The position numbers and the translations under genes are program-made. Below, piece after piece: positions 25,592-50,376 of a stretch of 64,000 nt of DNA. Position 1 is the first letter of the stretch, and each line of letters starts with the position of its first letter. This DNA is from Clostridiales bacterium. GTDB taxonomy: Bacteria > Bacillota > Clostridia > Christensenellales > Aristaeellaceae. Location: NCBI GenBank assembly GCA_004555535.1, contig SFHU01000001.1, positions 10,678 through 74,677 of the forward strand. The letters are read 5' to 3'. Under the pieces are notes generated by a model. That model made no database searches and was not told where the DNA came from. It was given only the letters and a program-made list of their open reading frames with translations.

Positions 25592-25656
25592 GGTTGGCTC
25601 CTTTCCTCTGCACAGGGCGGAAACTGCGAACATTCCGGTAAACATGCTTTTACGCA

Positions 25657-25792: not shown

Positions 25793-25827
25793 GAATGCGC
25801 CCGGCGTGCTTCAGGCGCAAACCCTGC

Positions 25828-30236: not shown

Positions 30237-30288
30237 CGAACACTCCCCCTCCCTTCGCGAGACGGCAACTGGCAACAATTCTATATTG

Positions 30289-30318
30289 ATTATATCACAC
30301 GTCTCATCCGACAGGCAA
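30289..30318 (-). promoter_or_regulatory. promoter TTGCCT-18-TATAAT (TG-extended) for the hypothetical-rsmF operon
   Basis: Sits in an AT-rich island; the minus strand reads TTGCCTgtcggatgagacgtgtgaTATAAT. Confidence 0.45.
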
Positions 30319-30439
30319 GAAAAAGGTTATTTTTTCCCACCATTTTTGGTATTTCACCCATGCCTGAATTGTGCGCAGGGGGATTCCATGCAGAGATTTC
30401 TCCGAACGCGGCGTCGCGCCCGGGCCAGGGACGGCCTTC

Positions 30440-31267
30440 TCAGAGCCGCTGCGCGGCGGAGAGACCCGCGACGCAGCCCTCGCCGACGGCCTTGGCGACC
30501 TGGAGCGGCAGACCGGTGCAGTCTCCCGCGGCATAGACGCGCGGCACGCTCGTGCGCATCATGCGGTCGACGCGGATGAACGCGCCCTCGGTCTCAAGGC
30601 CGGGCAGCAGCGAGGAGAGGGCCATCGCCTCGCGGAAGATGAAGACGCCGTCAAAGGGCAGCTCCAGCCCACCGCAGAGCAGGCCGGTGGCGTGCGTGTC
30701 GCCAAGGATGGCCTCGGGGCGCTCCTGCCGCACGTCGACGCGCGGATCGAGCGCCGGGTCGGGCGCGCCGAAATAGGCCACCTGCTCGCAGATCGACGCC
30801 AGGAAGTTCGCCTCGTGCAGCGCCTCCGGGCCCTGAGCGATGACGGCGACGCGCTTGCCGCGGTAGAGCATGCCGTCGCAGGTGCCGCAATAGCTGACGC
30901 CGCGGCCGAGCAGCTCGCCTTCGCCGGGGAGCAGCCGGGGCTGCTTTGCGCCGGTGCAGAGCACGACCGTCGCGGCCTCGACGAAGTCCGCGCCCAGCGA
31001 CAGGCCGAAGGAATCGCCCATCGGGACGACCTGATGGACGACGCCGGGGCGCGTCTGCGCGCCGAGGGCTCTGGCCTGATCGCGCATGGCCGCAAGCAGC
31101 GCCGGGCCGGAGATATCCGGCAGGCCGGGATAATTGGCGATTTCCTGCGCGCGGGCGAGCCAGCCCGCGTGCTGGCCGATGACGAGGACGGACTTGTCGC
31201 GCTTTCTCGCGCTGATGGCGGCGGAATAGCCCGCGGGGCCCGCGCCGATGATAGCGATGTCCAGCAT
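30440..31267 (-). CDS. thioredoxin-disulfide reductase family flavoprotein
   Basis: Trimmed to MLDIAIIGAGPAGYSAA (RBS AGGAGG). Redox motif YCGTCDG; AAGDC near the C-terminus. Confidence 0.75.
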   Translation of the reverse strand: MLDIAIIGAGPAGYSAAISARKRDKSVLVIGQHAGWLARAQEIANYPGLPDISGPALLAAMRDQARALGAQTRPGVVHQVVPMGDSFGLSLGADFVEAATVVLCTGAKQPRLLPGEGELLGRGVSYCGTCDGMLYRGKRVAVIAQGPEALHEANFLASICEQVAYFGAPDPALDPRVDVRQERPEAILGDTHATGLLCGGLELPFDGVFIFREAMALSSLLPGLETEGAFIRVDRMMRTSVPRVYAAGDCTGLPLQVAKAVGEGCVAGLSAAQRL

Positions 31268-31420
31268 GATTGCCTCCTGAAAGAATGATAAGGCCGGCTT
31301 CTGAAACAGAAGCAAACCGAGAAGTGCATTGAAGGCTGCACAGCAAAGCCTTGGCTTTCTTCGCCTTAACCGAAGCATACCCTGTTCCGGTTTCAAGGCA
31401 AAATGCATTTGTTTGCAAAT

Positions 31421-31761
31421 CAGGGATACAGCCCCGGGTCCAGGGCCACAGCCCTGGTCGTTTCAAGGGGGTTATAGGGAGTCAAGAGGGATCTAAGGGG
31501 GGAAATCGAAATCCCCCCTGATCCCTCTTGCCCAGCGGAGCGCGTCTCCCCAGACGCAGAAAAGTGGATTTTTAAAAAATCCATAAGCTTTTGCGGAGCA
31601 GCTTCTTGCAACCGTTACGCATAAAACCCGTCTCAATCGTAGGCTGCTTCGCAGCCTGCTCTGAGACTACGTTTTTCTGGATTTGAGGGAGAACGATTGG
31701 GGCGCCGCCCCAAACCCCGCAAGGGACTTCGCCCCTTGACCCCATGTTCGCTTCGCGGCGG
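31421..31761 (+). repeat. interspersed modular repeat, long form (core 31626..31673)
   Basis: Left arm AGCCCCGGGTCCAGGGCCACAGCCCTGGTCGTTTCAAGGGGG, AGAGGGATC..GATCCCTCT, TGCCCAGCGGAGCGCGTCTCC, an AT-rich stretch, the core, TTGGGGCGCCGCCCCAA, CAAGGGACTTCGCCCCTTG and the tail TTCGCTTCGCGGCGG. Confidence 0.85.
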
Positions 31762-31767
31762 TTTCAA

Positions 31768-34023
31768 TCAGCTTCTCAATTCAACCTGCTTCCCCTTGAG
31801 CGCAACCGTCAGCGGCTCGCCGGAGAGCAGCCTGAGGCCCGTGCTCTCGCGCGTGACGCTGACCTCGATCAGCCGTCCGCGATAGACGATCTTGAAGGCG
31901 TAGCCGTCCCAGCCGTCGGGCAGCTGCGGGTCAAAGCTCAGCTCGCCCGTGATCGTGCGCATGCCGGCAAAGCCCTGCACGATGGAGAGCCAGCTGCCCG
32001 CCATCGAGGTGATGTGCAGGCCGTCGCCGGTGTCGTTGTTGATGTTGTCCAGATCCAGCCGCGCCGTGCGCTGGTAGAGCTCCTGCGCCTTGTCGAGCCT
32101 GCCGATGGAGGCGGCGAGGATGCTGTGCACACAGGGCGAGAGGCTCGACTCATGCACCGTCATCGGCTCGTAGAACTCGAAGTTCCGGCGGATCGTCTCC
32201 TTGTCGTAGAGGTGCTCCAGGAAATACAGGCCCTGGAGCGTGTCGGCCTGCTTGATGAAGCAGGAGCGCAGGATCTTGTCCCAGCTCCAGTGCTGGTTGA
32301 TCGGCCGCTCCTCGCTTGAGAGGCTCGAGGCCGGGCGCAGCTCCTTGTCAAGGAACGTGTCGTGCTGCACGAAGATGCCCAGCTCCTCGTCACAGGGCAG
32401 ATACATCTTCTCGCTGATCTCCCTAAAGCGGCGCAGCTCCTCCGCGCCGACGCCCAGCGTCTGCGCCTTCTCGCGCGGCACGAGCATCAGCTGCTCCGCC
32501 GTATAGGAAAGCACCCAGGCGGCCATGCGGTTGGTGTACCAGTTATTATTGACGTTATTTTCGTATTCATTCGGGCCGGTCACGCCGTGGATCATGTAGC
32601 AGTCCTTTTTCGCGCAGTAATGGACGCGGCCCGCCCAGAAGCGCGCGATGCCCAGCAGCACGTCGATGCCATAGGTATCCAGATAGCCGCGGTCGCCGGT
32701 GTACTGCGTATAGGCGTAGATCGCGTAGGCGATGGCGCTGTTGCGGTGGATCTCCTCGAAGGTGATCTCCCACTCGTTGTGGCACTCGACGCCGGTGAAG
32801 GTGACCATCGGATAGAGCGCGCCGGGCAGCCCCTGCTCGCGGGCGTTGTGGTAGGCGCCGTCGAGCTGGAGCCAGCGGTATTTGAGCAGATTCTGCGCGA
32901 CCTCCTCGCCCGCAATCGCGGTATACAGCGGCAGGCAGTAGGCCTCGGTATCCCAGTACGTCGCGCCGCCGTATTTTTCGCCCGTGAAGCCCTTGGGGCC
33001 GATGTTCAGCCGCGCGTCCTCGCCGTAATAGGTCGAGAAGAGCTGGAAGATGTTGAAGCGGATGCCCTGCTGCGCGGCGACGTCGCCCGCGATGAGGACG
33101 TCGGCCTTCTCCCAGCGGCGAGCCCAGGCGCGCTCCTGCTCGCGGCGCAGCGCGTCATAGCCGGCCTGCTGCGCGGCCATGGCGCCGTCATGCGCGGAAA
33201 GGGCGAACGCCTCCTCGCTGTGGTCGCGGCTGGTCGTCACGCAGACGAACTTGTCGCAGCCGACGGTCTGCCCCGGCTCGCAGTCAAAGACAAGCTTGCG
33301 GCAGACATAGCCCTCCTGGGTCGAGGTCTTGTTCTTGCGCGGCTTTTCGGTGGGCGTGACGGCCATCGCGCCGACGACCGCGAAGCGCGGCGTGCCGAAG
33401 GGATTCTCCTTCGTGCGCACGGCGACGCTCAGCACGCCGCTCTCGGACTCCTCCTCGCCCTCAAAGAGCCAGAACGTCTCGTCATAGTTGGCATCCTCGT
33501 TGTGCACGTCGGCGTCAATGGCCGGCAGCAGCGCGACCTTGCAGGCGTAGTCCGCCGTGACGCGGCAGCGCAGCGCGAGAATCTCCGGTCTGTCGATGGA
33601 CACGAAGCGCTCAAAGCTCACGCGCACCGTGCCGCCCTCGCGGCGGATGACGAAGTCGCGCGAGAGGACGCCCTCGCGCATGTCGAGCATCCGCGTGAAG
33701 GAGACGACCTCGTCCGTCGCCAGGTCGATATCCTCCCTGTCGATGCGCACGCGCAGGGAGATGATGTTCATCGCGTTGATGACCTTGCCGAAGTAGAGCG
33801 GATAGCCGTTCTTCCACCAGCCCACGCGCGTCTTGTCCGGGAACCAGACGCCCGCCAGATAGGTGCCCCGGTGGCAGTCTCCGCTGTAACGCTCCTCGAA
33901 ATTGCCGCGCATGCCCATGTGCCCGTTGCCGATGGAGGTCATCGACTCGGACAGGCGCATGTCTTCGCGGTGCAGCTCGCGCTCCACGAGCCGCCAGGGA
34001 TCATAGGCAAACAGTGTCTTCAT
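31768..34023 (-). CDS. GH65 glycoside phosphorylase (maltose/kojibiose phosphorylase family)
   Basis: About 751 aa. ESMTSIGNGHMGMRGNFEE at the N-terminus and GTGDGLHITSMAGSW in the C-terminal catalytic region are typical of GH65. Confidence 0.9.
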   Translation of the reverse strand: MKTLFAYDPWRLVERELHREDMRLSESMTSIGNGHMGMRGNFEERYSGDCHRGTYLAGVWFPDKTRVGWWKNGYPLYFGKVINAMNIISLRVRIDREDIDLATDEVVSFTRMLDMREGVLSRDFVIRREGGTVRVSFERFVSIDRPEILALRCRVTADYACKVALLPAIDADVHNEDANYDETFWLFEGEEESESGVLSVAVRTKENPFGTPRFAVVGAMAVTPTEKPRKNKTSTQEGYVCRKLVFDCEPGQTVGCDKFVCVTTSRDHSEEAFALSAHDGAMAAQQAGYDALRREQERAWARRWEKADVLIAGDVAAQQGIRFNIFQLFSTYYGEDARLNIGPKGFTGEKYGGATYWDTEAYCLPLYTAIAGEEVAQNLLKYRWLQLDGAYHNAREQGLPGALYPMVTFTGVECHNEWEITFEEIHRNSAIAYAIYAYTQYTGDRGYLDTYGIDVLLGIARFWAGRVHYCAKKDCYMIHGVTGPNEYENNVNNNWYTNRMAAWVLSYTAEQLMLVPREKAQTLGVGAEELRRFREISEKMYLPCDEELGIFVQHDTFLDKELRPASSLSSEERPINQHWSWDKILRSCFIKQADTLQGLYFLEHLYDKETIRRNFEFYEPMTVHESSLSPCVHSILAASIGRLDKAQELYQRTARLDLDNINNDTGDGLHITSMAGSWLSIVQGFAGMRTITGELSFDPQLPDGWDGYAFKIVYRGRLIEVSVTRESTGLRLLSGEPLTVALKGKQVELRS

Positions 34024-34105
34024 GGAAGAATTCAACCTTTCTTGCCGGCGGGGCCGGCCCTCGCTCCGGAGGCGGATTCCTGTCAGTCAAAAAACGCTTG
34101 TCAAA

Positions 34106-34136
34106 AAGGGAAAAAAGCCGCACGAAACGGCGGCTT
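34106..34136 (-). terminator. rho-independent terminator after the YhcH-family gene
   Basis: The minus strand reads AAGCCGCcgtttcgtGCGGCTT followed by TTTTCC. Confidence 0.6.
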
Positions 34137-34144
34137 GTGCGCAA

Positions 34145-34585
34145 TCACAGCACGGGGATCTTGACGACCACCTTGCGGTAGTGCTTCTGGAACTGCTCGT
34201 GGCAGGCGGCCTTGTGTCCGTCGCTGGGGAACATGAGGAAGAACATGCCCGGGCGCACGGAGATGGACGTCGACTTGCCCGTGTAGAAGTAGTTGTCGTG
34301 CTCCGGGTCCTCGCTGCGCAGGTTGAGCTCCTGGATGTGCGCCCAGCTCATGCGCTCGCCGCCGGAGATGCAGTACTGCAGATCGATGTATTTCTTATGG
34401 GACTCCAGCTCGACGGTGTCCAGCTGGCGGGTATCTCCCTCCGACACCGTGGCAAACAGGCCGTTCTCCAGCTCATAGCGGCCCGGCTCGAGGTCCGGCG
34501 CCTCGGAGAGAAAAGCAAAGGCCTGCTCCATTTCAGGGTGAAGCGGATAATAGCGCTCCTGTTCTTCAATTCGATCGATGATCAC
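34145..34585 (-). CDS. YhcH/YjgK/YiaL family (DUF386) protein
   Basis: I start at GTG 34585 (AGGAGG 9 nt upstream), giving VIIDRIEEQERYYPLHPEMEQAF.. ; ESHKKYIDLQY...FPSDGHK are family hallmarks. Confidence 0.75.
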   Translation of the reverse strand: MIIDRIEEQERYYPLHPEMEQAFAFLSEAPDLEPGRYELENGLFATVSEGDTRQLDTVELESHKKYIDLQYCISGGERMSWAHIQELNLRSEDPEHDNYFYTGKSTSISVRPGMFFLMFPSDGHKAACHEQFQKHYRKVVVKIPVL

Positions 34586-34641
34586 AGGGATCAGCCTCCT
34601 TCTTGTCATCCATCTCATTATAAGGCAAGCGAAAAAAACAG

Positions 34642-35697
34642 TCAATCCCCCGCTTGCCTGTCCGCCTCATAGGAAGCAGCAAACGCGCTGACGAGCTGGC
34701 GGATGCGCTCGCTGCCCTCCTCCATATTCTCAACCGAGGTCACGCGGTTTTCCCCCGCCGCCATCGCGCGCATGACCGCGTCGCTGATGTCGCCCGAATG
34801 ATGGGAGTAGTCAAAGTAGTTGTCAAGGTCCGTGATCCACTCCCCGCGGGAGGAAAAGTCGAAGATCTTCACATTCGGATACTCAAGCAGCAGCTCGCAG
34901 ACCCGCGCGCGCGAGCGGAACTGCTGCTCCGAGAGGCCGCCGCAGGTCATCAGATACCAGTAGGCGACGGAATACGGCGGCATGTAGATGACAAACTCCG
35001 TCTCCGGATGCGCGGCGATATACGGCTCCAGGTGGCGCGTGATGTTCTCCGTCGAGCGCTCCAGCCGGGTGTCGGCGGGCAGCATTTCGCTGTGGGCGAT
35101 GACGTCGGGCAGCGCGTCATAGACGCTCTGCGCGCCGAAGGTCACGTCCGTCCACTGGTACATGTCATCGCGCTTCGTGTCAAGCGGCTTGCCCAGGTTT
35201 TGAAGCATCTTCGGGATGCGCACCAGCAGCACGTCGAGGCTGAGCAGATAGTTCACGTCGTCGGGCAGGCTGTCGTTCCACAGATAGGGATAGATCTCCT
35301 CCATGTCCTCCGGCGGGCCCATGAGGCTGTACGCGTCCACGGCGAGGATCGCGAGCTTCAGCTCATGCGTCTCAAGCACATGCGCAAGCTGCCAGCCCAT
35401 CTGCGCCGTATGCGAGCCGCGCATGGGCAGCTTGACGCTCGAGACGCCGAAGGCCTCGTCGATCACCGAGGGATGGCTCATCTCGACCATCGACGTGCCG
35501 AGGATCACGGCGTCGTAATCGTAGTTTTTCGCGATGCCGGGGTTGTTGTAGCTCTCCTGGTCGTACAGCGGCAGGATGGCGGATTCGCGGTAATGCTCAA
35601 AGGGATCGACGAGATAGACCGCCAGCGCGCAGAGCGCCAGCAGCACAAGGAGAAGGGCGAGGACGGCGACTGTCCAGCGTTTGGCTTTTAAAAGCAT
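34642..35697 (-). CDS. membrane-anchored hypothetical protein (single N-terminal TM)
   Basis: 351 aa, RBS GAAAGGAG, TM WTVAVLALLLVLLALCALAVYL, large extracytoplasmic domain. No family recognised with confidence. Confidence 0.6.
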   Translation of the reverse strand: MLLKAKRWTVAVLALLLVLLALCALAVYLVDPFEHYRESAILPLYDQESYNNPGIAKNYDYDAVILGTSMVEMSHPSVIDEAFGVSSVKLPMRGSHTAQMGWQLAHVLETHELKLAILAVDAYSLMGPPEDMEEIYPYLWNDSLPDDVNYLLSLDVLLVRIPKMLQNLGKPLDTKRDDMYQWTDVTFGAQSVYDALPDVIAHSEMLPADTRLERSTENITRHLEPYIAAHPETEFVIYMPPYSVAYWYLMTCGGLSEQQFRSRARVCELLLEYPNVKIFDFSSRGEWITDLDNYFDYSHHSGDISDAVMRAMAAGENRVTSVENMEEGSERIRQLVSAFAASYEADRQAGD

Positions 35698-35726
35698 GGG
35701 GCGCTCCTTTCCGTGCGGATGCCATG

Positions 35727-35756
35727 ATTATAGCATGACGCGCGCGCGGCGCGCAA
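35727..35756 (-). promoter_or_regulatory. extended -10 promoter (TGCTATAAT) for the 351-aa membrane-anchored protein gene
   Basis: The minus strand has TTGCGC-18-TGCTATAAT about 30 nt upstream of ATG 35697. Confidence 0.4.
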
Positions 35757-35796
35757 GGGCGCGCGCGGCGGGCTTGCGCGCCGCCGTTTTGGCGAT

Positions 35797-35828
35797 TGAA
35801 AACGGCCGGCGCTTGACACGCCGGCCGT
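35797..35828 (-). terminator. rho-independent terminator (distal terminator of the peptide transcript)
   Basis: The minus strand reads ACGGCCGGCGtgtcaagCGCCGGCCGT followed by TTTC. Confidence 0.55.
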
Positions 35829-35841
35829 CCCGTAGTACAAT
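35813..35841 (+). promoter_or_regulatory. sigma-A-type promoter TTGACA-17-TACAAT (drives the antisense RNA)
   Basis: Exact -35 consensus, 17-nt spacer, 5/6 match at -10. No protein gene follows on this strand for about 400 nt. Confidence 0.55.
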
Positions 35842-35847
35842 ACAGTC

Positions 35848-35950
35848 AGGAGATGGTCGTCTCGCACGCCAGTCCCCACTTCGGGAATGACGAAGAAAAC
35901 AAGCCATGCCGCCGTTGTAGCCCTAACTACACGGCGGCTTGCTTGTTATT
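35848..35950 (+). ncRNA. candidate antisense RNA (type I antitoxin) convergent to the 29-aa peptide gene
   Basis: Starts about 7 nt after a consensus promoter (35813..35841). It overlaps the 3' UTR and stop codon of the peptide mRNA and ends at the shared hairpin 35900..35946. It may read through to the terminator at 36137..36161. Confidence 0.35.
35893..35946. terminator. long hairpin shared by the convergent peptide mRNA and antisense RNA
   Basis: CAAGCCATGCCGCCGTTGTAG-ccctaa-CTACACGGCGGCTTGCTTG. T-rich on the minus side (TTGTTTTCTT) and TTATTT on the plus side. Confidence 0.55.
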
Positions 35951-36035
35951 TGCTACCCAGCATGTATACTGAGATCAGCAAAGAAGCGACGGAAGCGATA
36001 AAGCCCAAAAGGCTCAGCAAATCCCCGTTGCTCAT
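35946..36035 (-). CDS. 29-aa hydrophobic peptide, candidate type I toxin (holin-like small toxin class)
   Basis: Not in ORF track (too short). The minus strand reads GAGGAGGTGAGCTT-ATG and encodes MSNGDLLSLLGFIASVASLLISVYMLGSK. It has its own promoter, an SD-sequestering hairpin, terminators and a convergent promoter (see findings). Confidence 0.55.
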   Translation of the reverse strand: MSNGDLLSLLGFIASVASLLISVYMLGSK

Positions 36036-36043
36036 AAGCTCAC

Positions 36044-36070
36044 CTCCTCTTCTGTATGACAGAAGCGGAG
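36044..36070 (-). promoter_or_regulatory. 5' UTR hairpin sequestering the peptide Shine-Dalgarno
   Basis: CTCCGCTTCTGT-cat-ACAGAAGAGGAG gives 11 of 12 pairs. The 3' arm contains the AGGAG of the RBS. Confidence 0.5.
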
Positions 36071-36109
36071 AAACCACCGTGCAAGGCTCCTGACCTGCAC
36101 CACAAAGCC

Positions 36110-36138
36110 ATCATATCACAGGCAGCATCCGTTTTCAA
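36110..36138 (-). promoter_or_regulatory. promoter TTGAAA-17-TATGAT with TG extension (drives the 29-aa peptide mRNA)
   Basis: The minus strand reads TTGAAAacggatgctgcctgtgaTATGAT, about 70 nt upstream of the peptide ATG. Confidence 0.5.
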
Positions 36139-36161
36139 GCCCGAAGGGGCTTTCCTTTTTT
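36137..36161 (+). terminator. short hairpin plus T-run
   Basis: AAGCCCgaagGGGCTT followed by TCCTTTTTT. It would stop any plus-strand read-through before the deoD promoter. Confidence 0.45.
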
Positions 36162-36164
36162 CTG

Positions 36165-36193
36165 TTGGCAATTTCTGCACGAAAGGGTATAAT
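36165..36193 (+). promoter_or_regulatory. promoter TTGGCA-17-TATAAT for deoD
   Basis: Located 64 nt upstream of the deoD ATG. Confidence 0.5.
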
Positions 36194-36256
36194 AGGAGCA
36201 TACGGTCCGCGGGGTTTGCTCCCGACCGAACGACGACAGAGAAAGGGGCTGCTTGC

Positions 36257-36970
36257 ATGGCCAATCCCAATATCCCGACTCCCCATATCACCGCGAAGGA
36301 GGGCGACTTCGCCCGCACCGTGCTGATGCCCGGCGACCCGCTGCGCTCCAAGTTCATCGCGGAAACGTACCTTGAAAACCCCGTGCTGGTCAACAACACG
36401 CGCGGCGTGCAGGGCTATACCGGCGCCTACAAGGGCAAGCGCGTCTCCGTGATGGCCTCCGGCATGGGCATGCCGTCCATCGGCATCTACTCCTATGAGC
36501 TGTTCAACTTCTACGGCGTGGAGAACATCATCCGCGTCGGCACGGCGGGCGGCATCGGCGACAACGTGCACGTGCGCGACATCGTCATCGGCATGAGCGC
36601 GTACACGAATTCGAACTTCGGCAGGCAGTACGGCTTTGACGGCAACGTCGCGCCCTGCTGCTCCTTCAGGCTCCTCGAGGCGGCGGTCAAGGCCGCGCGC
36701 GGCATGGGCATCGAGCCGAACGTCGGCGCGCTGTATTCCTCCGACATCTTCTACGACGAGGCCGGCGGCGCGGGCAAGCTCAAGAAGCTGGGCGTGCTGG
36801 CAACGGAGATGGAAACCGCCGCGCTCTACCTCAACGCCGCGCGCGCGGGCAAGAACGCGCTGGCCATCTGCACGATCTCCGACCACATCTTCACCGGCGA
36901 ATCCCTGCCGGCGCAGGAGCGGCAGGTCAGCTTCACGCAGATGATGGAAATCGCGCTGGAAATTGCGTAA
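36257..36970 (+). CDS. deoD: purine nucleoside phosphorylase DeoD type
   Basis: Trimmed to MANPNIPTPHITAKEGDFARTVLMPGDPLR. SVMASGMGMPSIGIYSYEL, VGTAGG, EMETAALY. Confidence 0.9.
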   Translation: MANPNIPTPHITAKEGDFARTVLMPGDPLRSKFIAETYLENPVLVNNTRGVQGYTGAYKGKRVSVMASGMGMPSIGIYSYELFNFYGVENIIRVGTAGGIGDNVHVRDIVIGMSAYTNSNFGRQYGFDGNVAPCCSFRLLEAAVKAARGMGIEPNVGALYSSDIFYDEAGGAGKLKKLGVLATEMETAALYLNAARAGKNALAICTISDHIFTGESLPAQERQVSFTQMMEIALEIA

Positions 36971-36984
36971 ACAGAGAGAGCGCC

Positions 36985-37452
36985 ATGAGCATCGAAAGAG
37001 CGCGGGCCCACCTGCAAAAGCACGGGCTCGCGGACAGAATCATCGAATTGGACGTCTCCAGCGCGACGGTCGCCCTGGCGGCGCAGGCGCTGAACTGCGA
37101 GAGCAACCGCATTGCCAAGACGCTCTCCTTCTCGCGCGGCGAGGGCGCGATCCTCATCCTCGCGGCGGGCGACGCGCGCATCAACAACGCGAAATTCAAG
37201 GCCCGCTTCGGCATGAAGGCGCACATGCTGCCCCACGACGCCGTCGAGCCGCTGATCGGCCACGCGGTCGGCGGGGTCTGCCCGTTCGGCATCAATCCCG
37301 GCGTGCCGGTGTATCTGGATGAATCGCTGCGCGCGTTTGACATCGTCTATCCCGCGGCGGGCACGGCCGCCAGCGCCGTGCGCCTGAGCCTCGAGGAGCT
37401 CGAGCGCGCCAGCGAGGCCGAAGGCTGGGTCGATGTCTGCAAGGCGCTTTGA
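36985..37452 (+). CDS. YbaK/EbsC-family aminoacyl-tRNA deacylase
   Basis: 155 aa; IAKTL..., GHAVGGVCPFG motif. Confidence 0.8.
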   Translation: MSIERARAHLQKHGLADRIIELDVSSATVALAAQALNCESNRIAKTLSFSRGEGAILILAAGDARINNAKFKARFGMKAHMLPHDAVEPLIGHAVGGVCPFGINPGVPVYLDESLRAFDIVYPAAGTAASAVRLSLEELERASEAEGWVDVCKAL

Positions 37453-37800
37453 CCGCCGCGAAGCGAAGAAGGGTCAAGGGGCTTAGCCCCTTGCGGGGTC
37501 TGGGGCAGCGCCCCAGGCAGGCTTGGGCGGCAGCCCAACGTTCCCTAATCAATCATTCAAGAAAACGTAGTCTCAGAGCAGGCTGCAAAGCAGCCTACGA
37601 TTGAGACGGGTTATCCATGCCAGGGCGGCTGGAAGCTTCTCAGCTGAAACGATCCGGGATTTCAGTAAAACCTCATTTGCGTCTGGGAAGACGCGCTCCG
37701 CGGGCCAGAGGGCGGAGGAGGGATCTCGACCTCCCCCCTCCACCCTCTGGACTCCCCCACCCCCTCGAAACGACCAGGGCTGCGGCCCTGGACCCGGGGC
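37453..37800 (-). repeat. interspersed modular repeat, long form (core 37564..37612)
   Basis: Begins 1 nt after the ybaK stop with CCGCCGCGAAGCGAAGAAGGGTCAAGGGGCTTAGCCCCTTG and ends with CCAGGGCTGCGGCCCTGGACCCGGGGC. Module order is colinear with 31421..31761 in reverse complement. Confidence 0.85.
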
Positions 37801-37897
37801 TTTTCTCGTGCTTTGTAAAAGAACGGCTCTTACCATAAAGCGTCCGTTTCTGCACATGATTTTACTACCGTCCCCCACGGGACAGGAAGGACACCAC

Positions 37898-38710
37898 ATG
37901 CTCAATAGAATCTTCATCTCCGCCGACATCGAGGGCACCTGCGGCATCGCCCACTGGGACGAGACCGAGCTGGGCAAGGGCGAATACGAATACTTCCGCC
38001 GTCAGATGACCGCCGAGGTCGCCGCCGCGTGCGAGGGCGCGCAGGCCGGCGGCAGCGACGGCATCACCATCAAGGACGCGCACGACAGCGCGCGCAACCT
38101 GATTCCCGCGAGCCTGCCGGAGGGCATCGAGATCTTCCGCGGCTGGGGCAGCGACATCCACTCCATGATGTCCGGCATCGACTCGAGCTTCTGCGGCGCG
38201 ATCTTCACCGGCTATCATTCCTCCTCCAACACCGACACCAGCCCGCTCTCCCACACGATGAACCTGAACAACACCTCCGTCACGATCAACGGCATTCAGG
38301 CCAGCGAGATGCTGATCAACGCCTTCACGGCGGCGTATTACGACGTGCCGCTGCTGCTGGTGACGGGCGACCTGGGCGTCTGCGAGCAGGCGAAGCGCCT
38401 CAACCCGAACATCGTGACCGTCCCCGTGCAGAAGGGCCGCGGCAACGGCACGATCTCCATCCATCCCGCCGAGGCCGTGCGCCGCATCCGCGAGGCGGCG
38501 GAGACCGCCGTGCGCGAGGGAATCAAAAACCCGGACAGCTTCCGCATCGACCTGCCCAACAAGTTCGACGTGGAGGTCGAGTTCCGCCAGCATCAGCACG
38601 CCCGCCGCGCCAGCTTCTATCCGGGCGTGCGGCAGACCGCGCCGCGAAAGGTGCTCTTCAGCTCCGACGCGTACTATGACGTGCTGCGGTTCTTCATGTT
38701 CTGCCTGTAA
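37898..38710 (+). CDS. dppA: D-aminopeptidase DppA (peptidase M55)
   Basis: Trimmed to MLNRIFISADIEGTCGI (RBS GGAAGG). KDAHDSARN, TGYHS; M55 pattern. Confidence 0.85.
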   Translation: MLNRIFISADIEGTCGIAHWDETELGKGEYEYFRRQMTAEVAAACEGAQAGGSDGITIKDAHDSARNLIPASLPEGIEIFRGWGSDIHSMMSGIDSSFCGAIFTGYHSSSNTDTSPLSHTMNLNNTSVTINGIQASEMLINAFTAAYYDVPLLLVTGDLGVCEQAKRLNPNIVTVPVQKGRGNGTISIHPAEAVRRIREAAETAVREGIKNPDSFRIDLPNKFDVEVEFRQHQHARRASFYPGVRQTAPRKVLFSSDAYYDVLRFFMFCL

Positions 38711-38817
38711 GCGGGCATAAAACGAGGGTCTTCTCCTTGGGACGGGAGAAGACCCTTTTTTGTTCAGGAAGACGCTCCGAAGCCTGGCGCGGCCGAAGGC
38801 CGTGACGGATGCAGTCT

Positions 38818-39696
38818 TCACCGCTCCATGAAGTCCCAGAGCCTTTGCAGCTCCTCCTGGCTGGCGTATTCCAGGATGATTTTGCCCTTCTGCTCGCTGC
38901 CCGTGAGGCTGACCTTGAGGCCCGTCGCGCTGCGCAGCCGCTCGGTCAGCTCCTCATACTCGACGGGGAGCGGATCTGGCTTTTTCTTTTCCTTCTTCTC
39001 GGGCGCGTTCTTCGCCGCGGCCTCGAGCTGGCGCACCGACCAGCCGAATTGCAGCGTCTTGGCGAAGAGATTCGCCTGCTGCTCGCGGTTCTCGATGCCC
39101 GCGAGCACGCGCGCATGCCCGGCGGAGAGCGTCCCGTCGATCACGGCCTGCTGAATCCGCGCGGGCAGGTTCAAAAGCCGCAGCAGGTTGGCGATGGCCG
39201 GGCGGCTGCGCCCGAGCCGCTCGGCGACGGCCTCCTGCGTCAGCGCGCATTCGTTCATCAGCGCGTAAATGCCCTGCGCCTCCTCGATGGGGTTGAGGTC
39301 CTCGCGCTGGATGTTCTCCACCAGCGCGGCCTCCTGCCGCTTGATGTCGTCCCATTCGCGCACAATGGCGGGAATCGTGGAGAGCCCCGCAATGCGCGCC
39401 GCGCGCCAGCGGCGCTCGCCCGCGATGATCGTGTAGCGGCTGCCGCTGCGGGCGACGAGGATCGGCGAGATCACGCCGCTGTGGCGGATGGATTCGGCCA
39501 GCGCGAGCAGCGCGTCGTCGTCAAAGCGCTTGCGCGGCTGGTTGCGGTTGGGATCGATCTCGCCCAGCGGCAGCTCCACGACCGCGCCCTCGGGCGCCGG
39601 CGTGCCCGCCTGCGCGGACTCGACCGATTCGACAACCTCTTCCACGTCCGGCAGGATCGCGCTCAGGCCCCTGCCCAGCCCCATTTTCTTCGCCAT
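38818..39696 (-). CDS. spo0J: chromosome partitioning protein ParB/Spo0J
   Basis: Trimmed to MAKKMGLGRGLSAIL (RBS GAGGGAG). PNRNQPRKRFD, GERRWRAA, LVENIQREDLNPIEEA. Confidence 0.9.
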   Translation of the reverse strand: MAKKMGLGRGLSAILPDVEEVVESVESAQAGTPAPEGAVVELPLGEIDPNRNQPRKRFDDDALLALAESIRHSGVISPILVARSGSRYTIIAGERRWRAARIAGLSTIPAIVREWDDIKRQEAALVENIQREDLNPIEEAQGIYALMNECALTQEAVAERLGRSRPAIANLLRLLNLPARIQQAVIDGTLSAGHARVLAGIENREQQANLFAKTLQFGWSVRQLEAAAKNAPEKKEKKKPDPLPVEYEELTERLRSATGLKVSLTGSEQKGKIILEYASQEELQRLWDFMER

Positions 39697-39793
39697 GCTC
39701 AGATGCTCCCTCATTCCCGGGGGAAGGTTCTTCCCCTGATCTTGCGGCGTGACGCCGGTAAATTGGGTCTGTATGCCCGCTTGGCAGGCTCAA

Positions 39794-40028
39794 ACCCGTC
39801 TCAATCGTAGGCCGCTTCGCGGCCTGCTCTGAGACTACGTTCTCTTTTTCTATTTTTGGGGGATACGATAGGGCTGCCGCCCTATGACCTGCCTGAGGGA
39901 TTTCAGGCCGGGGAACTCGCATGGTCGCGCTGCGGCGCTTCCTGCGATTCCCGACGCTTCGTCTGCCTCTTTCCGCCATTGGCGGCGGCAGACTTCGGTC
40001 CCCTCAGACTCCCTTCTTCGCTTCGCGC
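39794..40028 (+). repeat. interspersed modular repeat, short form with an approx. 100-bp insertion in the H3 hairpin (core 39794..39842)
   Basis: Core with GGCCGC/GCGGCC stem, then GATAGGGCTGCCGCCCTATGACC, then CTGAGGGATTTCA[insert]CCCCTCAGACTCCCTTCTTCGCTTCGCG. Compare 59631..59767, which lacks the insert. Confidence 0.85.
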
Positions 40029-40048
40029 TGTTTGAAGCGGGCGCTGCG

Positions 40049-40807
40049 TTACACTCTGCTCAAAAATTCCTTCGCCAGCGCCTGATAGCTCTGCGCGCCC
40101 AGCGAGCGCGGGTCGTAGAGGCTGATGGGCAGGCCGTGGCTCGGGGCCTCGCCCAGACGCACGTTGCGCGGAATGACCGTGCCAAAGACCTTGCCCTTGA
40201 AGACCTTGCGCACCTCCTGGGCGACCTGCACGCCCAGATTCGTGCGCGCGTCGAGCATCGTCAGCACGACGCCGTCGATCGTCAGCCGCCGGTTGATGCG
40301 CTGCACCTTCTGAATCGTGCCCATCAGCGCGCTGACGCCCTCCAGCGCGTAATACTCGCACTGGATCGGGATGAGCACGCCGTCGGCGGCGCACAGCGCG
40401 TTGAGCGTGATCAGCCCCAGCGAGGGCGGGCAGTCGATGAAGATATAGTCGTAATCATCCCCCGCGCCGGCAAGCGCCTCGGCGAGCACATGCTCGCGCC
40501 GCTCCATGCCGGCCAGCTCGATCTCCGCGCCGGCCAGACGGATATCCGCCGGGAGGACGAAGAGCGTGTCGATGCCGGTCTTGACGGCGGCGTCGGAAAG
40601 CGCCGCCTCCCCCGCCATGACCTCATAGACCGTCTTCGTCTTCTCCCGCACGCGCACGCCGAAGCCGCTCGACGTATTGCCCTGCGGATCGGCGTCCACG
40701 ACGAGCACGCGGCGGCCCTCCTGCGCGATGCAGGCGGAGAGGTTGACGCTGGTGGTCGTCTTGCCCACGCCGCCCTTCTGGTTCGTAATTGCAATGATTC
40801 TGGCCAT
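40049..40807 (-). CDS. soj: ParA/Soj partitioning ATPase
   Basis: Trimmed to MARIIAITNQKGGVGKTTTSVNL (deviant Walker A). DADPQGN, IDCPPSLG. Confidence 0.9.
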   Translation of the reverse strand: MARIIAITNQKGGVGKTTTSVNLSACIAQEGRRVLVVDADPQGNTSSGFGVRVREKTKTVYEVMAGEAALSDAAVKTGIDTLFVLPADIRLAGAEIELAGMERREHVLAEALAGAGDDYDYIFIDCPPSLGLITLNALCAADGVLIPIQCEYYALEGVSALMGTIQKVQRINRRLTIDGVVLTMLDARTNLGVQVAQEVRKVFKGKVFGTVIPRNVRLGEAPSHGLPISLYDPRSLGAQSYQALAKEFLSRV

Positions 40808-40826
40808 AGTATTCCTCAAGCTTCCA

Positions 40827-41285
40827 TCACCGGCGCTGGCCGTTCTCCTCCAGCACCTGCGTAATCCATTCCCGGTCAAAGCCGTCGAGCGGGAAGCGCG
40901 CGAGCAGCTCGCGCATCGCGGCAAAGGAGCCCTCGCGGGCGAGGTCAAAGAGCGCGCTTTGCAGCGCCTCGCTCACATCCATGCGCGCGTAGGCGAGGGC
41001 GAGCAGCCTGTCCGCCAGGTCGCGCAGGCGGTCGCTGGTCACGCGCTCGCGCCGCCCGCCGTCAAGCTGCACGACCATCGAGCGCTCCGTGCCCAGATAC
41101 ACGGCGTTGAAGAGCACGGAATCCAGCCGGCGCCAGATTTCGGCGGGCGAATCCTGTGTGCGCATGAAGCGCACGAGCTGCGCGTTGATCGTATAGACGA
41201 GCTCCGGGCTCTTGCGCACCAGCGCGCTCCCCAGCGCGCCCATGAGCATGCCCTCAATCTGATCCAGCCTGCCCGGCATCGTCAT
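40827..41285 (-). CDS. hypothetical protein immediately upstream of soj
   Basis: 152-aa ORF ending 19 nt before the soj start; helical, no family recognised. Confidence 0.5.
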   Translation of the reverse strand: MTMPGRLDQIEGMLMGALGSALVRKSPELVYTINAQLVRFMRTQDSPAEIWRRLDSVLFNAVYLGTERSMVVQLDGGRRERVTSDRLRDLADRLLALAYARMDVSEALQSALFDLAREGSFAAMRELLARFPLDGFDREWITQVLEENGQRR

Positions 41286-41426
41286 CCCTCCTGCTCCATC
41301 GGCCTGTAAAGCCGCATCCGTATCCAGTCTTTATTCTACACTCTCTGCTTCCCCTCCTGCAAGGGGTTTTGGCGAAATTGGGAAATTCCGGCCGGCCGGC
41401 GCGAAAGCGCGCCGCCGCGCGGTCAG

Positions 41427-41455
41427 TTTACATTTGCCGTCTTCTGGCGTATAAT
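41427..41455 (+). promoter_or_regulatory. promoter TTTACA-17-TATAAT for tldD-pmbA
   Basis: Seen directly; 30 nt upstream of the tldD ATG. Confidence 0.5.
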
Positions 41456-41485
41456 AAAGTGAAAAAATATGCGAGGAGGACAACC

Positions 41486-42871
41486 ATGCTTTCAACAGCC
41501 ATCTGCCAGCGGGTGCTCAGCCGGGCGCTCTCCCGCGGCGGCACGTTCGCGGAGATCTTCGCCGAGGACGACCGGAATTTCTCGATGCTGCTGCGCTCCC
41601 GCAAGATCGAGAACGCCGGCTTTTCGCGCCCGCGCGGCGCGGGCATCCGCGTCTATGACGGCCTGCGCTCCATCTATGTCTACACCTGCGACATGACCGA
41701 AGGCGGTCTGCTGCGCGCGGCGGAGCAGGCGGCCGCCGCCGTCACCGACACGCGCGGCGCCGGAAAGGACGTCGTGCTCCGCGCCTCTGCCGTGCAAAAC
41801 ATCCATCCCGTGCGCGAGAGCGTGCTCTCCGTGCCTGCGCAAAGGCGCGCGGATATCCTGCGCACGGCGGACGCGGCGGCGCGCGCCGTCTCCCCGTCAA
41901 TCTCCCAGGTGACGGCGGGGCTGATCTCCCGCGAGCAGCATGTGCTCATCGCCAACAGCGAGGGCCTCTACGCGCAGGATACGCGCGTCTATACCCGTCT
42001 GACCTGCTCTGCGGTCGCCAGCAACGGCTCGGAAAACCAGACCGGCACGGAGAACCCCGGCGCGCTGATGGGCTTTGAGCTCTTCAGCGAGCGCGTCGAC
42101 CCCGAGCAGGCCGGCAAGGCGGCGGCGACCTCCGCCGTGACGATGCTGACCGCGCCCTATTGCGCGGCGGGCGAGATGCCCGTGGTCATCGCGGGCGGCT
42201 TCGGCGGCGTCATCTTCCACGAGGCCTGCGGCCATTCCCTGGAGGCGACGAGCGTGCAGCCGGGCATGAGCGAGTTTTCCGGCAAGCTCGGGCAGACCAT
42301 CGCCGCGCCCTGCGTCACGGCCATCGACGACGGCACGATGCAAAACGAATGGGGCAGCGAAAATATCGACGACGAGGGCACGCCGACCACGCGCCTGGTG
42401 CTCATCGAGCGCGGCGTGCTCAAAAACTACATGGTCGACCGGCTCAACGGCCTCAAGATGGGCATGGCGCCGACCGGCAACGGCCGCCGCGAGAGCTATG
42501 CCTACGCGCCGACCAGCCGCATGCGCAACACCTACATCGCCCCCGGCGAGGACGACGAGGAGGAGATGCTGCGCACGATGGGCGACGGGCTGTACGCCGC
42601 GAAGATGGGCGGCGGCAGCGTCAACCCCGCGACCGGCGAATTCAACTTCGCCGTGCAGGAGGGCTATCTCGTGCGCGACGGCAAAATCGCCTCGCCCGTT
42701 CGCGGCGCGTCGCTGATCGGCCGCGGCGGCGAGATCCTCATGCGCATCGACCGCGTGGGCAAAGAGATGACGATGGGCCAGGGCATGTGCGGCTCCCTGA
42801 GCGGCAGCGTGCCGACGAACGTCGGCCAGCCGACCATCCGCGTGAGCCGGCTGACCGTCGGCGGAAAGTGA
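41486..42871 (+). CDS. tldD: TldD-family metalloprotease
   Basis: Trimmed to MLSTAICQRVL (RBS GAGGAGGA). HEACGHSLE zinc motif; C-terminal GMCG..G pattern. Confidence 0.9.
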   Translation: MLSTAICQRVLSRALSRGGTFAEIFAEDDRNFSMLLRSRKIENAGFSRPRGAGIRVYDGLRSIYVYTCDMTEGGLLRAAEQAAAAVTDTRGAGKDVVLRASAVQNIHPVRESVLSVPAQRRADILRTADAAARAVSPSISQVTAGLISREQHVLIANSEGLYAQDTRVYTRLTCSAVASNGSENQTGTENPGALMGFELFSERVDPEQAGKAAATSAVTMLTAPYCAAGEMPVVIAGGFGGVIFHEACGHSLEATSVQPGMSEFSGKLGQTIAAPCVTAIDDGTMQNEWGSENIDDEGTPTTRLVLIERGVLKNYMVDRLNGLKMGMAPTGNGRRESYAYAPTSRMRNTYIAPGEDDEEEMLRTMGDGLYAAKMGGGSVNPATGEFNFAVQEGYLVRDGKIASPVRGASLIGRGGEILMRIDRVGKEMTMGQGMCGSLSGSVPTNVGQPTIRVSRLTVGGK

Positions 42872-42879
42872 GGATCAGC

Positions 42880-44217
42880 ATGGAGATGAATATTTCGCAG
42901 TTCGCCGCGCGCGTGTTTGACGCCGCCCGTGAGGCGGGCATCGCCCCGGCGGAGATCTGCTACAGCAGCAGCGAGAGCTTCACGGCGCGCGCCCGCGACG
43001 GCAAGCTCGAGGACTACCAGGTCAGCGACCGCGTGAGCCTGACGCTGCGCGGCTGCGCCGGCGGGCGCATCGGCACGAGCACGACGCAGGCGCTGGACGA
43101 GGAGAGCGTCGCGCTGCTCGTGCAGGGCGTCAAGGAGAGCGCCTCGCTGATCGAAAACGACGAGCAGGACGAGATTCTCCCGCCGGACGAGCGCTACGAA
43201 TCCGTCTGCAATTACAGCGGCGAGCTGGACAGGCTCCCGCCGCAGGAGAAGATCGCCCTGGCGATGGACATCGACGCGCGCATGCACGACGGCGACGCGC
43301 GCATCAAGCCGGACGTCTCCGTCGTCTCCACGGGCAAGGAGACCTTCTGCCTCAAGAACACGCTGGGGCTCGACCTGACGCACACCAGCAACATGATCTA
43401 TGGCTACACCTCCGCGCTGGCCAAGGAGGGCGAGCGCGCCGCCTCGGGCTTCAAGCTCCTGTGGGGCTACAAAAAGGAGGACGTGAACGCGCAAAAGCTC
43501 GCGCAGGACTGCCAGGAAGAGGCGCTTTGCAACCTCGGCGCGGGGCGCATGAGAAGCGGCGCGACGCCCGTGGTCATCAAGAACAGCGCGATGGGCGACC
43601 TGCTCTCGACCTTCTCGGGCATCTTCTCCGCGGACAACGCGCAAAAGGGCATCTCGCTGCTCGCCGGGCGCGAGGGCGAGACGATCGCCAGCGCCTGCGT
43701 GACCATCACGGACGACCCGCTGCTGCCCTGGGGACTGGGGAGCAGCCCGTTTGACCGCGAGGGCGCGGCGACGCGCACGAAGAACGTCGTCGAGGGCGGC
43801 GTGCTCAAGACGCTGCTGCACAACCGGCAGACCGCGAAGAAGGCCGGCGTCAAGACGACCGGCAACGCGGCGGGCGGCGGGCGCGTCGCGCCGAGCAATC
43901 TGTTCATCGCGCCGGGCACGCTTGCGGCGGGCGACCTGCTGCGCAACATGGGCGACGGGCTGTATCTGACGGAGGTCAGCGGCCTGCACGCCGGCGCGAA
44001 CCCGATCAGCGGCGACTTTTCGCTGCTCGCGCGGGGCTTTGAGATCAAAGGCGGCGAATGCGTGCGCGCCGTGGAGCAATTCACGGTCGCGGGCAACTTC
44101 TACCAGCTGCTCAGGGATATCCTGAGCGTCGGCAGCGACCTGCACTTCGAGGGCTCGCCCATCGGCAGCCCGACGGTCGCCGTGCGCAGCCTGAGCATAG
44201 CCGGTGCGGACGAATAA
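42880..44217 (+). CDS. pmbA: PmbA/TldE-family protein (TldD partner)
   Basis: Starts MEMNISQFAARVFD 9 nt after the tldD stop. TldD/PmbA fold without the HExxxH motif. Confidence 0.85.
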   Translation: MEMNISQFAARVFDAAREAGIAPAEICYSSSESFTARARDGKLEDYQVSDRVSLTLRGCAGGRIGTSTTQALDEESVALLVQGVKESASLIENDEQDEILPPDERYESVCNYSGELDRLPPQEKIALAMDIDARMHDGDARIKPDVSVVSTGKETFCLKNTLGLDLTHTSNMIYGYTSALAKEGERAASGFKLLWGYKKEDVNAQKLAQDCQEEALCNLGAGRMRSGATPVVIKNSAMGDLLSTFSGIFSADNAQKGISLLAGREGETIASACVTITDDPLLPWGLGSSPFDREGAATRTKNVVEGGVLKTLLHNRQTAKKAGVKTTGNAAGGGRVAPSNLFIAPGTLAAGDLLRNMGDGLYLTEVSGLHAGANPISGDFSLLARGFEIKGGECVRAVEQFTVAGNFYQLLRDILSVGSDLHFEGSPIGSPTVAVRSLSIAGADE

Positions 44218-44233
44218 AAAGGCGGCAAACCGC

Positions 44234-44288
44234 CGCGAAGCGAAGAAGGGTCAAGGGGCTAAGCCCCTTGACCCTATTTCGCTTCGCG
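44234..44288. repeat. tail-to-tail palindromic repeat fragment
   Basis: CGCGAAGCGAAGAAGGGTCAAGGGGCT-A-AGCCCCTTGACCCTATTTCGCTTCGCG, a near-perfect 55-nt palindrome between convergent pmbA and thrE-type genes. Confidence 0.8.
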
Positions 44289-46503: not shown

Positions 46504-46552
46504 GGGAAGCATCCTCCTTGATTGATGTCTGTAATCACATATCGTGTTTTGC

Positions 46553-50372: not shown

Positions 50373-50376
50373 ATCA

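Follow-up and report, generated by a model that had tools for sequence, protein, structure and literature searches.

A dispersed repeat of uncultured gut Clostridia, tied tail-first to stop codons, is probably a mobile element co-transcribed as a structured module

Within a 64,000-nucleotide stretch of DNA from a Clostridiales bacterium (assembly GCA_004555535.1, contig SFHU01000001.1, positions 10,678 to 74,677; hereafter the window), we analysed a dispersed repeat, one copy of which occupies positions 37453-37612 and reads 5' to 3' on the plus strand. The repeat is inserted DNA. Its left end, the tail, is tied to stop codons while its right end is not. Compensatory changes keep its hairpins intact, with a preference for the mRNA-sense strand. 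The repeat occurs specifically in one clade of uncultured gut Clostridia, made up of Candidatus Ventricola and Christensenellales-like metagenome-assembled genomes (MAGs). [quoted passage not shown]

From left to right, a complete copy consists of a T-N-A triplet, the left inverted repeat TACTGTTTTGC...GCTTT..., a tail in which a stretch of purines follows the mini-hairpin CGC-GAA-GCG, two or three hairpins rich in G+C, a linker rich in A, a core hairpin tagged with GTAG, and the right inverted repeat ...GCAAAGC...GCAAAACAGTA, followed by a second T-N-A. The element measures 135-240 nt from tail to core and about 200-220 nt with its arms, and it has no coding capacity: frames that open inside it just run on into neighbouring housekeeping genes. 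In the focal copy, which follows the gene ybaK, the following parts can be told apart:

37441 to 37455, plus strand: remnant of the inner left arm, GCGCTTTGACCGC, including the ybaK stop TGA at 37450-37452
37456 to 37473, plus strand: tail, CCGCGAAGCGAAGAAGGG, with the mini-hairpin CGC-GAA-GCG at 37457-37465 and then purine-rich AAGAAGGG
37475 to 37493, plus strand: hairpin 1, CAAGGGGC-TTA-GCCCCTTG, with compensatory changes in all 8 pairs across 150 copies
37500 to 37516, plus strand: hairpin 2, G+C-rich
37523 to 37538, plus strand: hairpin 3, optional, G+C-rich
37539 to 37563, plus strand: A-rich linker, unpaired
37564 to 37612, plus strand: core, AAC-GTAG-TCTCAGAGCAGGCTGC-AAA-GCAGCCTACGATTGAGAC-GGGTT, a two-part stem
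37613 to 37650, plus strand: right arm, degenerate in this copy and poorly kept compared to the consensus GGGnTGATTCnGCAAAGC...CAAAACAGTA

Directly 5' of the tail, alignment of the flanks revealed the motif GCTTTnAACC, which is common to most copies. The core stem contains one G·U pair that is fixed and a conserved internal loop in which GA faces GA; the reading of this loop as tandem GA/GA is only a suggestion. The fold of the focal copy pairs hairpin 1 with the inner left arm, an alternative that was rejected because it is inconsistent across sub-families.

At up to three mismatches, the window holds 14 occurrences of the tail motif GCGCGAAGCGAAGAAGGG, where chance would give 0.37, and a profile hidden Markov model (nhmmer) together with a covariance model yielded 16 copies or part-copies. 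Since the window has a G+C content of 65%, raw lists of open reading frames (ORFs) were useless and a codon-usage gene caller was built instead; the resulting map agrees with database gene calls for the same DNA or for contigs of the same organism. Placed on this map, the copies are:

5833 to 5965, minus strand: reversed copy with a variant core, after a terminator and facing the next gene start
8482 to 8573, plus strand: part-copy with tail and two hairpins, no core; ABC permease stop at 8463, tail at 8484, 20 nt
17183 to 17317, plus strand: full copy; stop at 17144, tail at 17185, 40 nt
22477 to 22590, minus strand: part-copy; stop at 22575 within the tail, cobalamin riboswitch next
25654 to 25794, plus strand: reversed full copy; right arm directly at the stop of gene 25828-26799 (minus strand)
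31623 to 31760, minus strand: full copy after a glycoside hydrolase family 65 (GH65) gene; stop at 31768, tail at 31758-31760, 7-9 nt, the stop lying inside the left arm
37453 to 37612, plus strand: focal copy after ybaK; stop at 37452, tail at 37456, 3 nt (1 nt to the start given in the preliminary description)
39791 to 40028, minus strand: long variant after parA/soj, with about 85 nt inserted in hairpin 1; stop at 40049, tail at 40028, 20 nt
44233 to 44289, no single strand: two opposed tails sharing one hairpin, a 57-nt palindrome between the convergent genes tldD/pmbA and thrE; one stop at 44217 lies 15 nt from 44233, and the thrE stop at 44274 is inside one tail
50377 to 50527, plus strand: full copy; stop at 50372, tail at 50379, 6 nt
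57675 to 57810, plus strand: full copy after an M20 peptidase gene; stop at 57598, tail at 57677, 78 nt, past a terminator-like hairpin
58660 to 58850, minus strand: full copy at a gene of the TRIC (trimeric cation channel) family; stop at 58851, tail at 58821, 29 nt, with an intact 29-nt left arm against the TGA
59628 to 59770, minus strand: full copy after a 76-aa ORF; stop at 59789, tail at 59768, 20 nt
60951 to 61097, minus strand: full copy after a gene for a 637-aa membrane protein; stop at 61108, tail at 61096, 11 nt
63936 to 64000, minus strand: core half, cut by the window end; the remainder and the gene end were read in L119 (L numbers denote loci outside the window)

A preliminary description of this DNA had placed the tail at or just after a stop codon in 13 of 15 copies. 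Its distances were reproduced within 1-3 nt (two-sided binomial p = 0.007), and the gene map bears out the reversal of the two remaining copies (5833-5965 and 25654-25794); the stop abutted by the right arm of the latter reads TCA, the complement of TGA. It had also foretold that the copy cut off at the window end follows the end of a minus-strand gene. In L119, a contig of the same organism, the sequence past the window end holds a minus-strand, Cys-rich ORF of 57 amino acids with its TGA at the equivalent of window position 64055, a degenerate tail GGCGAGGGCGAGGAAGC in its last codons and the gene for CvpA (colicin V production protein) just upstream, and provided that this ORF is real, the forecast came true. 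Orientation indeed tracks local gene direction and not position along the window, as seven forward and nine reverse copies are interleaved while the cumulative GC skew falls monotonically across the window; for the same reason, replication direction was rejected as the cause of orientation. Two claims had to be revised. To call the polarity 'strict' was an overstatement, since the rule holds in about 75-90% of copies, and the boundaries were drawn too narrowly, with the element reaching some 30 nt further on the upstream side of the tail and some 40 nt past the core. Several of the 'gaps' that separate a stop from a tail therefore belong to the element, which often includes the stop codon itself.

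To extend the analysis beyond the window, species representatives of a genome collection were scanned with a degenerate core pattern, which matched at least 112 stretches; the counts outside the window rest on the matches listed, all of which are MAGs of uncultured gut Clostridia (Clostridiales, Christensenellales, Candidatus Ventricola) and which add about 200 further copies from about 15 related MAGs. The core pattern had no match in viral contigs. Outside the window, 96 of 126 copies have a co-oriented gene on their tail side, as do 88 of 118 independent sites once orthologous flanks are collapsed (p = 9e-8). The rule is real and general there too, applying to about 75-77% of copies. The core side follows no such rule outside the window (49 co-oriented, 70 opposed, with starts and stops about equal). 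Tails come after a co-oriented gene in 108 of 140 cases (p = 8e-11), or in 100 of 132 with orthologous flanks collapsed. A stop codon was found within 34 nt of the left end in 80 of 140 assessable ends, compared to 8 of 130 assessable right ends with a stop within 45 nt. About 20 copies have TGA or TAA directly before a full-length left arm of 28-30 nt, so that the stop codon occupies the T-N-A position; in about 60 others the stop lies inside the left arm or tail, which means that the upstream reading frame runs on into the element. Sorted by the arrangement of the neighbouring genes, the copies fall into four groups:

Co-directional gene pairs, forward copies: 31, with the tail after the upstream stop
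Co-directional gene pairs, reversed copies: 11, of which 6 have a right arm touching or overlapping the upstream stop
Convergent gene pairs: 20, with the tail at most 31 nt from its stop in 19
Divergent gene pairs: 3

Such an asymmetry might be produced by selection only, if insertion were unoriented and reversed copies were purged as polar terminators, their reversed core presenting a hairpin and then UACGUUUUU. The reverse strand of the core does read as a hairpin with a T-run. However, the terminator scan did not call the reversed core, in which the T-run begins 3 nt after a stem with an internal loop. Purging would also fit the 31 forward versus 11 reversed copies between co-directional genes and the position of the reversed copy 5833-5965 after a genuine terminator. 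Between convergent genes, in contrast, where a terminator would be harmless or even useful, the right end lies at a stop in none of 20 cases and the left end in 19 of 20, and the stop of the other gene is 76-594 nt away from the core in all 20. Moreover, reversed copies that exactly fill an operon gap persist in two species (L051 and L057), and the bias is present already in the least diverged copies and in every divergence class. Between convergent genes, polar effects cannot be the filter. We therefore consider selection alone an unlikely cause and favour the view that the bias arises at integration, since selection leaves the 19:0 split between convergent genes, the persisting reversed copy and the independence of age unexplained.

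The evidence for insertion lies in the ends of the element, in a nested copy and in empty sites. Flanks aligned on the tail are conserved over about 30 nt upstream of it, TACTGTYTTGCA...GCTTTnAACC, and flanks aligned on the core over about 40 nt downstream, GnTGATTCnGCAAAGC...GCAAAACAGTA. The two arms form a pair of inverted repeats, as illustrated by TGATACTGTCTTGCACTTAAAAGCT and AGATTTTAGCCGCAAAATAGTATCA in L073. The best-preserved copies have terminal inverted repeats of 25-30 nt with T-N-A on both sides; clear repeats of 20-30 nt are found in L073, L030, L040, L111, L035 and L081, and of 19 nt in the window copy 31623-31760. More than 25 right ends from a single MAG, SUG673, are near-identical up to ...AATAGTA, then T-N-A with all four middle bases represented, and then unrelated sequence; left ends are likewise preceded by T-N-A. 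One copy in L029 is nested at a TCA in the core of another copy, which ruled out the duplication of a TA target. The identity of the stop codon turned out to be uninformative as a test of T-N-A targeting, as TAG makes up only 4.6% of the stops in these genomes.

Orthologous sites lacking the element were found in L101, L115, L051 and L125. The spacer between ybaK and the M55 peptidase gene is 22 nt long in L101 compared to 445 nt in the window, and the orthologous ybaK of L101, which has no element behind it, stops two codons earlier; judged by this comparison, the last two codons and the stop of ybaK in the window appear to be derived from the element. Two genes that are 1 nt apart in L115 have a copy between them in L051 and L057, where it is reversed and exactly fills the gap (L051 2365-2566, L057 2278-2477). 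As a side observation, the left arm of this copy contributes, through its complement, a ribosome-binding site (GGAG) that lies 8 nt ahead of the downstream start codon. In L125, the stop of the TRIC-family gene is directly followed by the terminator, whereas the window has a copy between the two. A base-precise empty site was not obtained via homologues of the TRIC-family protein, as the element-less relatives are only 76% identical and their flanks cannot be aligned; a relative at 89% identity carries the element.

Two further observations concern the spread of copies within the clade. Metagenome and MAG contigs often end inside the element (L001, L004-L006 and many of L007-L118), as expected of a high-copy repeat, and since they do so frequently, we regard it as a main cause of assembly fragmentation in the clade. 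Four pairs of loci (L024/L026, L031/L084, L016/L087 and L051/L057) share the same left arm and tail at orthologous gene ends of different MAGs and have different types of hairpin 1, which suggests gene conversion or repeated replacement at the site.

We then turned to the RNA structure. The covariance model, built from nine window copies, gave 190 hits in 714 kb, and pair statistics were calculated for the 150 best of these on an alignment that is itself fitted to the model. Compensatory changes occur in 28 of 36 pairs. Paired cells amount to 95%, compared to 84% after column shuffling and 35-45% when partners were slid by 1-3 columns, and helix 1, the mini-hairpin of the tail, is paired in 99% of the 150 copies. 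On the tail-to-core strand, G·U exceeds A·C by 33:4 in hairpin 1 and by 12:3 in the tail hairpin, and 132 of 137 copies share one fixed G·U pair in the core. In 97 of 112 copies, the fold of the sense strand is more stable than that of its complement, with a mean difference of 4.3 kcal/mol; z-scores controlled for composition are -4.99 for the sense strand compared to -4.60 (p = 0.025). Together, wobble asymmetry, folding energy and compensatory change indicate that hairpin formation on one strand is under constraint. The mRNA of the upstream gene contains the constrained strand in about 77% of copies.

A single-stranded DNA intermediate would leave the same strand signature as RNA. The repeat might be a single-strand, REP-like element of the HUH/RAYT type (RAYT, REP-associated tyrosine transposase). 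In that case the hairpins of one DNA strand, namely the GTAG-tagged core and the GCGAAGC mini-hairpins, would be recognised, and the element would enter the non-template strand, exposed once ribosomes leave at the stop, and gain a transcription-defined polarity in this way. Compensatory change implies that hairpin formation matters, which binding to double-stranded DNA would not need, and the strand-specific asymmetry of wobble pairs points in the same direction. The middle bases of the two T-N-A triplets are independent, which fits insertion without duplication; the long terminal inverted repeats, however, are not an HUH feature. GTAG stands directly before the imperfect palindrome of the core, as in GTAG-type REPs, but each element has a single core and no inverted REP pair. 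The motif GCGAAGC is repeated in tail, linker and variant core, and d(GCGAAGC) is an exceptionally stable DNA mini-hairpin. Elements of the IS200/IS605 type lack inverted repeats and have their orientation tied to replication direction, a rule that the repeat does not follow. No Y1 transposase was present in the sampled loci (these loci only, not genome-wide); in particular, a Pfam scan of 24 sampled proteins from copy-flanked genes, which are housekeeping genes such as HIT, GNAT, purE and RNase HII, revealed no RAYT. As targeting of a transcription bubble or R-loop is moreover speculation, we deem this scenario improbable.

Several results weigh against the proposed mobile repeat with a role in transcripts. 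Neither a transposase nor a RAYT was found next to any copy or elsewhere in the 790 kb of examined DNA. The same 790 kb yielded no autonomous parent: no tail-core pair at a distance of 260-4000 nt encodes a transposase (the only find was a chance core-like match in a gene), pairs of TNATACTGT...ACAGTATNA up to 4 kb apart comprise one of MITE size and no autonomous element, and long ORFs opening after a tail are only read-through into housekeeping genes. Full-length inverted repeats are recognisable in only a handful of the 92 full copies (about six by our reading). The flanking T-N-A triplets share their middle base in only one of four complete copies, so a 3-bp duplication is not established, and none of the empty sites is base-precise. 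T-N-A itself is symmetric, without a purine or pyrimidine strand preference at either flank; the target triplet can thus not set the orientation. With respect to the RNA, the modest difference in z-scores means that the preference for the sense strand is partly due to base composition, and because hairpin-1 types recur and differ between orthologous copies, part of the covariation is inherited or gene-converted rather than independent.

For the function at the gene end, the preliminary description had left a choice between a 3' UTR cassette (stabiliser, terminator or attenuator, or processing site) and an element that prefers to insert at gene ends. The latter is upheld by terminal inverted repeats with T-N-A flanks, empty sites, the nested copy and stops lying against the left end. 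The cassette stands in part: the position of the element between the TRIC stop and the native terminator, the covariation of the hairpins and the preference for the mRNA sense speak for it, while a role as terminator or attenuator in the sense orientation found no support. Insertion preference and 3' UTR cassette are probably two aspects of a single phenomenon.

An intrinsic terminator or attenuator acting on the upstream gene in sense orientation was a candidate, as the copies stand directly after stops and contain several G+C-rich hairpins. Yet the terminator scan detected no hairpin with a U-tract on the sense strand at any copy in the scanned regions (30000-45000 and 50000-64000), in agreement with direct reading, and called only weak antisense signals at hairpin 1 of one copy. 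In addition, 31 forward copies lie between co-directional genes, some of them only 43-66 nt before the next start, and genuine terminators follow the element at 58303-58355, the native terminator of the TRIC-family gene beyond copy 58660-58850, and at 22490-22520, where a hairpin with a T-run stands in place of the core of part-copy 22477-22590. As a sense U-tract is missing, copies lie inside co-directional pairs and real terminators come after them, the element is not a sense-strand terminator, and we give this explanation hardly any credence. Most plausibly, to judge from the order of hairpins, A-rich strand and long hairpin, it would be a stabilising or processing module of the sense RNA. 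Three G+C-rich hairpins, an A-rich single strand and then a long hairpin would be expected of a block to 3'-to-5' exonucleases with an endonuclease site.

The strong covariation, the conserved loop nucleotides, the preference for the sense strand and the lack of coding capacity could also be explained by a non-mobile, vertically inherited family of cis-regulatory RNAs or small-RNA genes. Against such a family stand the empty sites, the nested copy, near-identical copies within one MAG and the contig breaks, and the genes next to the copies are unrelated housekeeping genes on both strands (e.g. parA/parB, GH65, tldD, ybaK and the M20 peptidase gene). No promoter-like site was called at the copies in 30000-45000 and 50000-64000. 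Rfam holds no match either: at gathering score, Rfam 15 reported for the whole window only the cobalamin riboswitch at 22244-22461, and when 37400-37900 was scanned permissively, nothing came up but chance hits of microRNA type on a hairpin nearby. A scan for tRNA and tmRNA detected none. All in all, we judge this possibility to be very improbable. Group II intron domain V, K-turn, tracrRNA and an omega-RNA-like core were considered as well and rejected, as their sequence patterns do not fit and Rfam gave no match.

Our preferred interpretation, a mobile repeat that becomes part of the transcript, suggests the following course of events. The element would integrate at T-N-A triplets, which in a genome of 65% G+C would largely be TGA and TAA stops, and integration itself would be oriented relative to the gene. 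Once inserted, it would be co-transcribed as the first part of a 3' UTR or intercistronic spacer. It would leave sense transcription unterminated and might form a stable structured module, serving as a barrier to 3'-to-5' exonucleases or as a processing site at the A-rich linker, and such a module would insulate the upstream cistron. Copies would then decay at their outer arms, with upstream frames often running to a stop inside the left arm. What the element senses during integration is a more tentative matter. It is conceivable, though rather doubtful, that polarity is set by the direction of gene expression, through capture by single-stranded or R-looped DNA after ribosomes leave at the stop or through another cue linked to transcription or translation. 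If true, this would be a transposon homing to the first bases of the 3' UTR, in sense orientation, at hundreds of unrelated genes. In a related version, the GA/GA core loop and the GCGAAGC mini-hairpins would bind a dedicated host protein and the copies would represent a genome-wide post-transcriptional regulon.

Some variants and neighbours of the element are worth recording. A long sub-family carries an insert of about 85-90 nt in the loop of hairpin 1, with model hits of 225-238 nt at about ten loci. The variant core CAGTCAGGGAGCGAAGCGTTACCTGACGG replaces the usual core at 5835-5870 on the minus strand and in L009, L038, L080, L093, L110 and L115. GCGAAGC is found in the tail, in the linker of some copies (58710-58722, 61010-61020) and in the loop of the variant core. 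Just past the core side of three copies, a second repeat family occurs at 37678-37819 (plus strand), 31412-31558 (minus strand) and 63718-63778 (minus strand), always in the same relative orientation to the copy that it adjoins; its features are a long hairpin that is nearly perfect (37705-37750) and another with a T-run (37784-37801). In L067, a closely related strain, this whole segment is missing together with the 3' half of the core. Downstream of the TRIC-family gene, the loop of the native terminator holds a different MITE (window about 58330-58560), which was also seen in L126 (2175-2330), where TTA flanks it on both sides, and in L122, with related sequence in eight other loci. Apart from these repeats, the window contains the cobalamin riboswitch (Rfam RF00174, 50 bits; 22244-22461, minus strand) upstream of gene 21278-22183, a 24-nt tandem repeat (13 overlapping registers) at 13881-14336 inside a 903-aa ORF (13567-16278), and an intergenic 75-nt tandem repeat in three copies at 46546-46769.

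Roughly one gene in four within the window has the element in its 3' UTR or between itself and the next gene. By extrapolation from this density, the lineage may hold several hundred copies, which would be enough to shape operon expression and to fragment the metagenome assemblies of the clade. With a symmetric target triplet and a roughly tenfold asymmetry between its ends, even between convergent genes, the repeat offers a clean case for separating insertion bias from selection. Should the bias be mechanistic, it points to a sensing of gene direction during integration; should it be functional, the repeat represents a new structured 3' UTR RNA with strong covariation and no Rfam entry.

Among known systems, the MITEs of bacterial UTRs (bcr1-bcr3, ERIC, RUP and Correia) come close. 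MITEs are non-autonomous DDE-type transposons shorter than about 300-500 bp. Like the present repeat, they are non-coding, intergenic, about 150-220 nt long and present in high copy number, they have terminal inverted repeats in intact copies, differ in presence between relatives and fold into stable hairpins; as proposed for the repeat, they are co-transcribed with neighbouring genes. They differ in that their sequences are unrelated and in that the internal motifs of our repeat are far better conserved than its terminal repeats; no partner transposase for it was found in 790 kb. To our knowledge, a preference of about 10:1 for a stop at one end, including convergent pairs, is stronger than any described for bcr, ERIC, RUP or Correia elements. 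In the Bacillus cereus group, bcr1-bcr3 frequently lie within UTRs or the spacers of operons (PMC3446304).

GTAG-type REPs, BIMEs and REPINs, which RAYT transposases mobilise, share with the repeat the GTAG directly 5' of an imperfect palindrome (in the repeat, GTAG-TCTCAGAGCAGGCTGC...GCAGCCTACGATTGAGAC with about 40 nt), the location at gene ends and the presumed action as RNA structure. For GTAG-type REPs, a GTAG (or CGTC) tag next to a palindrome of 20-40 nt has been described, as has a position no more than about 20 nt from the upstream ORF's 3' end, with neighbouring genes that are unidirectional or convergent; at times they supply the stop (PMC3733652). In contrast, the unit described here is 5-8 times longer, consists of several distinct modules and ends in inverted repeats; it has one core per element, with neighbouring cores hundreds of bases apart and no inverted pairs, its host is a lineage of Clostridia, and the examined DNA contained no RAYT. 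An IS200/IS605-derived palindrome-associated element was rejected in view of the inverted repeats and of seven forward and nine reverse copies on a monotonic GC skew. Integron attC sites were also rejected, as the flanking genes are core housekeeping genes on both strands, whereas attC sites belong to arrays of co-oriented promoterless cassettes beside an integrase. Intrinsic (Rho-independent) terminators resemble the repeat in their position after genes, their G+C-rich hairpins and, with respect to the antisense strand, the T-run after the core; they differ from it in their U-tract, since the sense strand, which is presented to the upstream gene in about 77% of copies, has none.

Members of the IS5 / PIF-Harbinger superfamily, such as the IS1031 group and the eukaryotic Tourist MITEs, target T-N-A or T-W-A, and 'Spy' elements insert without duplication. 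The repeat resembles them in the T-N-A at both ends, and another MITE family of these genomes is flanked by TTA at either end; this likeness rests on target preferences and not on a transposase. It differs in that a duplication of the triplet is not shown (one of four copies has matching triplets) and that its TACTGT... terminus cannot be assigned to an IS family. Since neither a partner transposase nor a RAYT was found in the examined DNA, and since the repeat has no proven duplication and no inverted REP pairs, it belongs to no named family, and we file it as a new family of small non-autonomous intergenic repeats that are presumed to act in transcripts.

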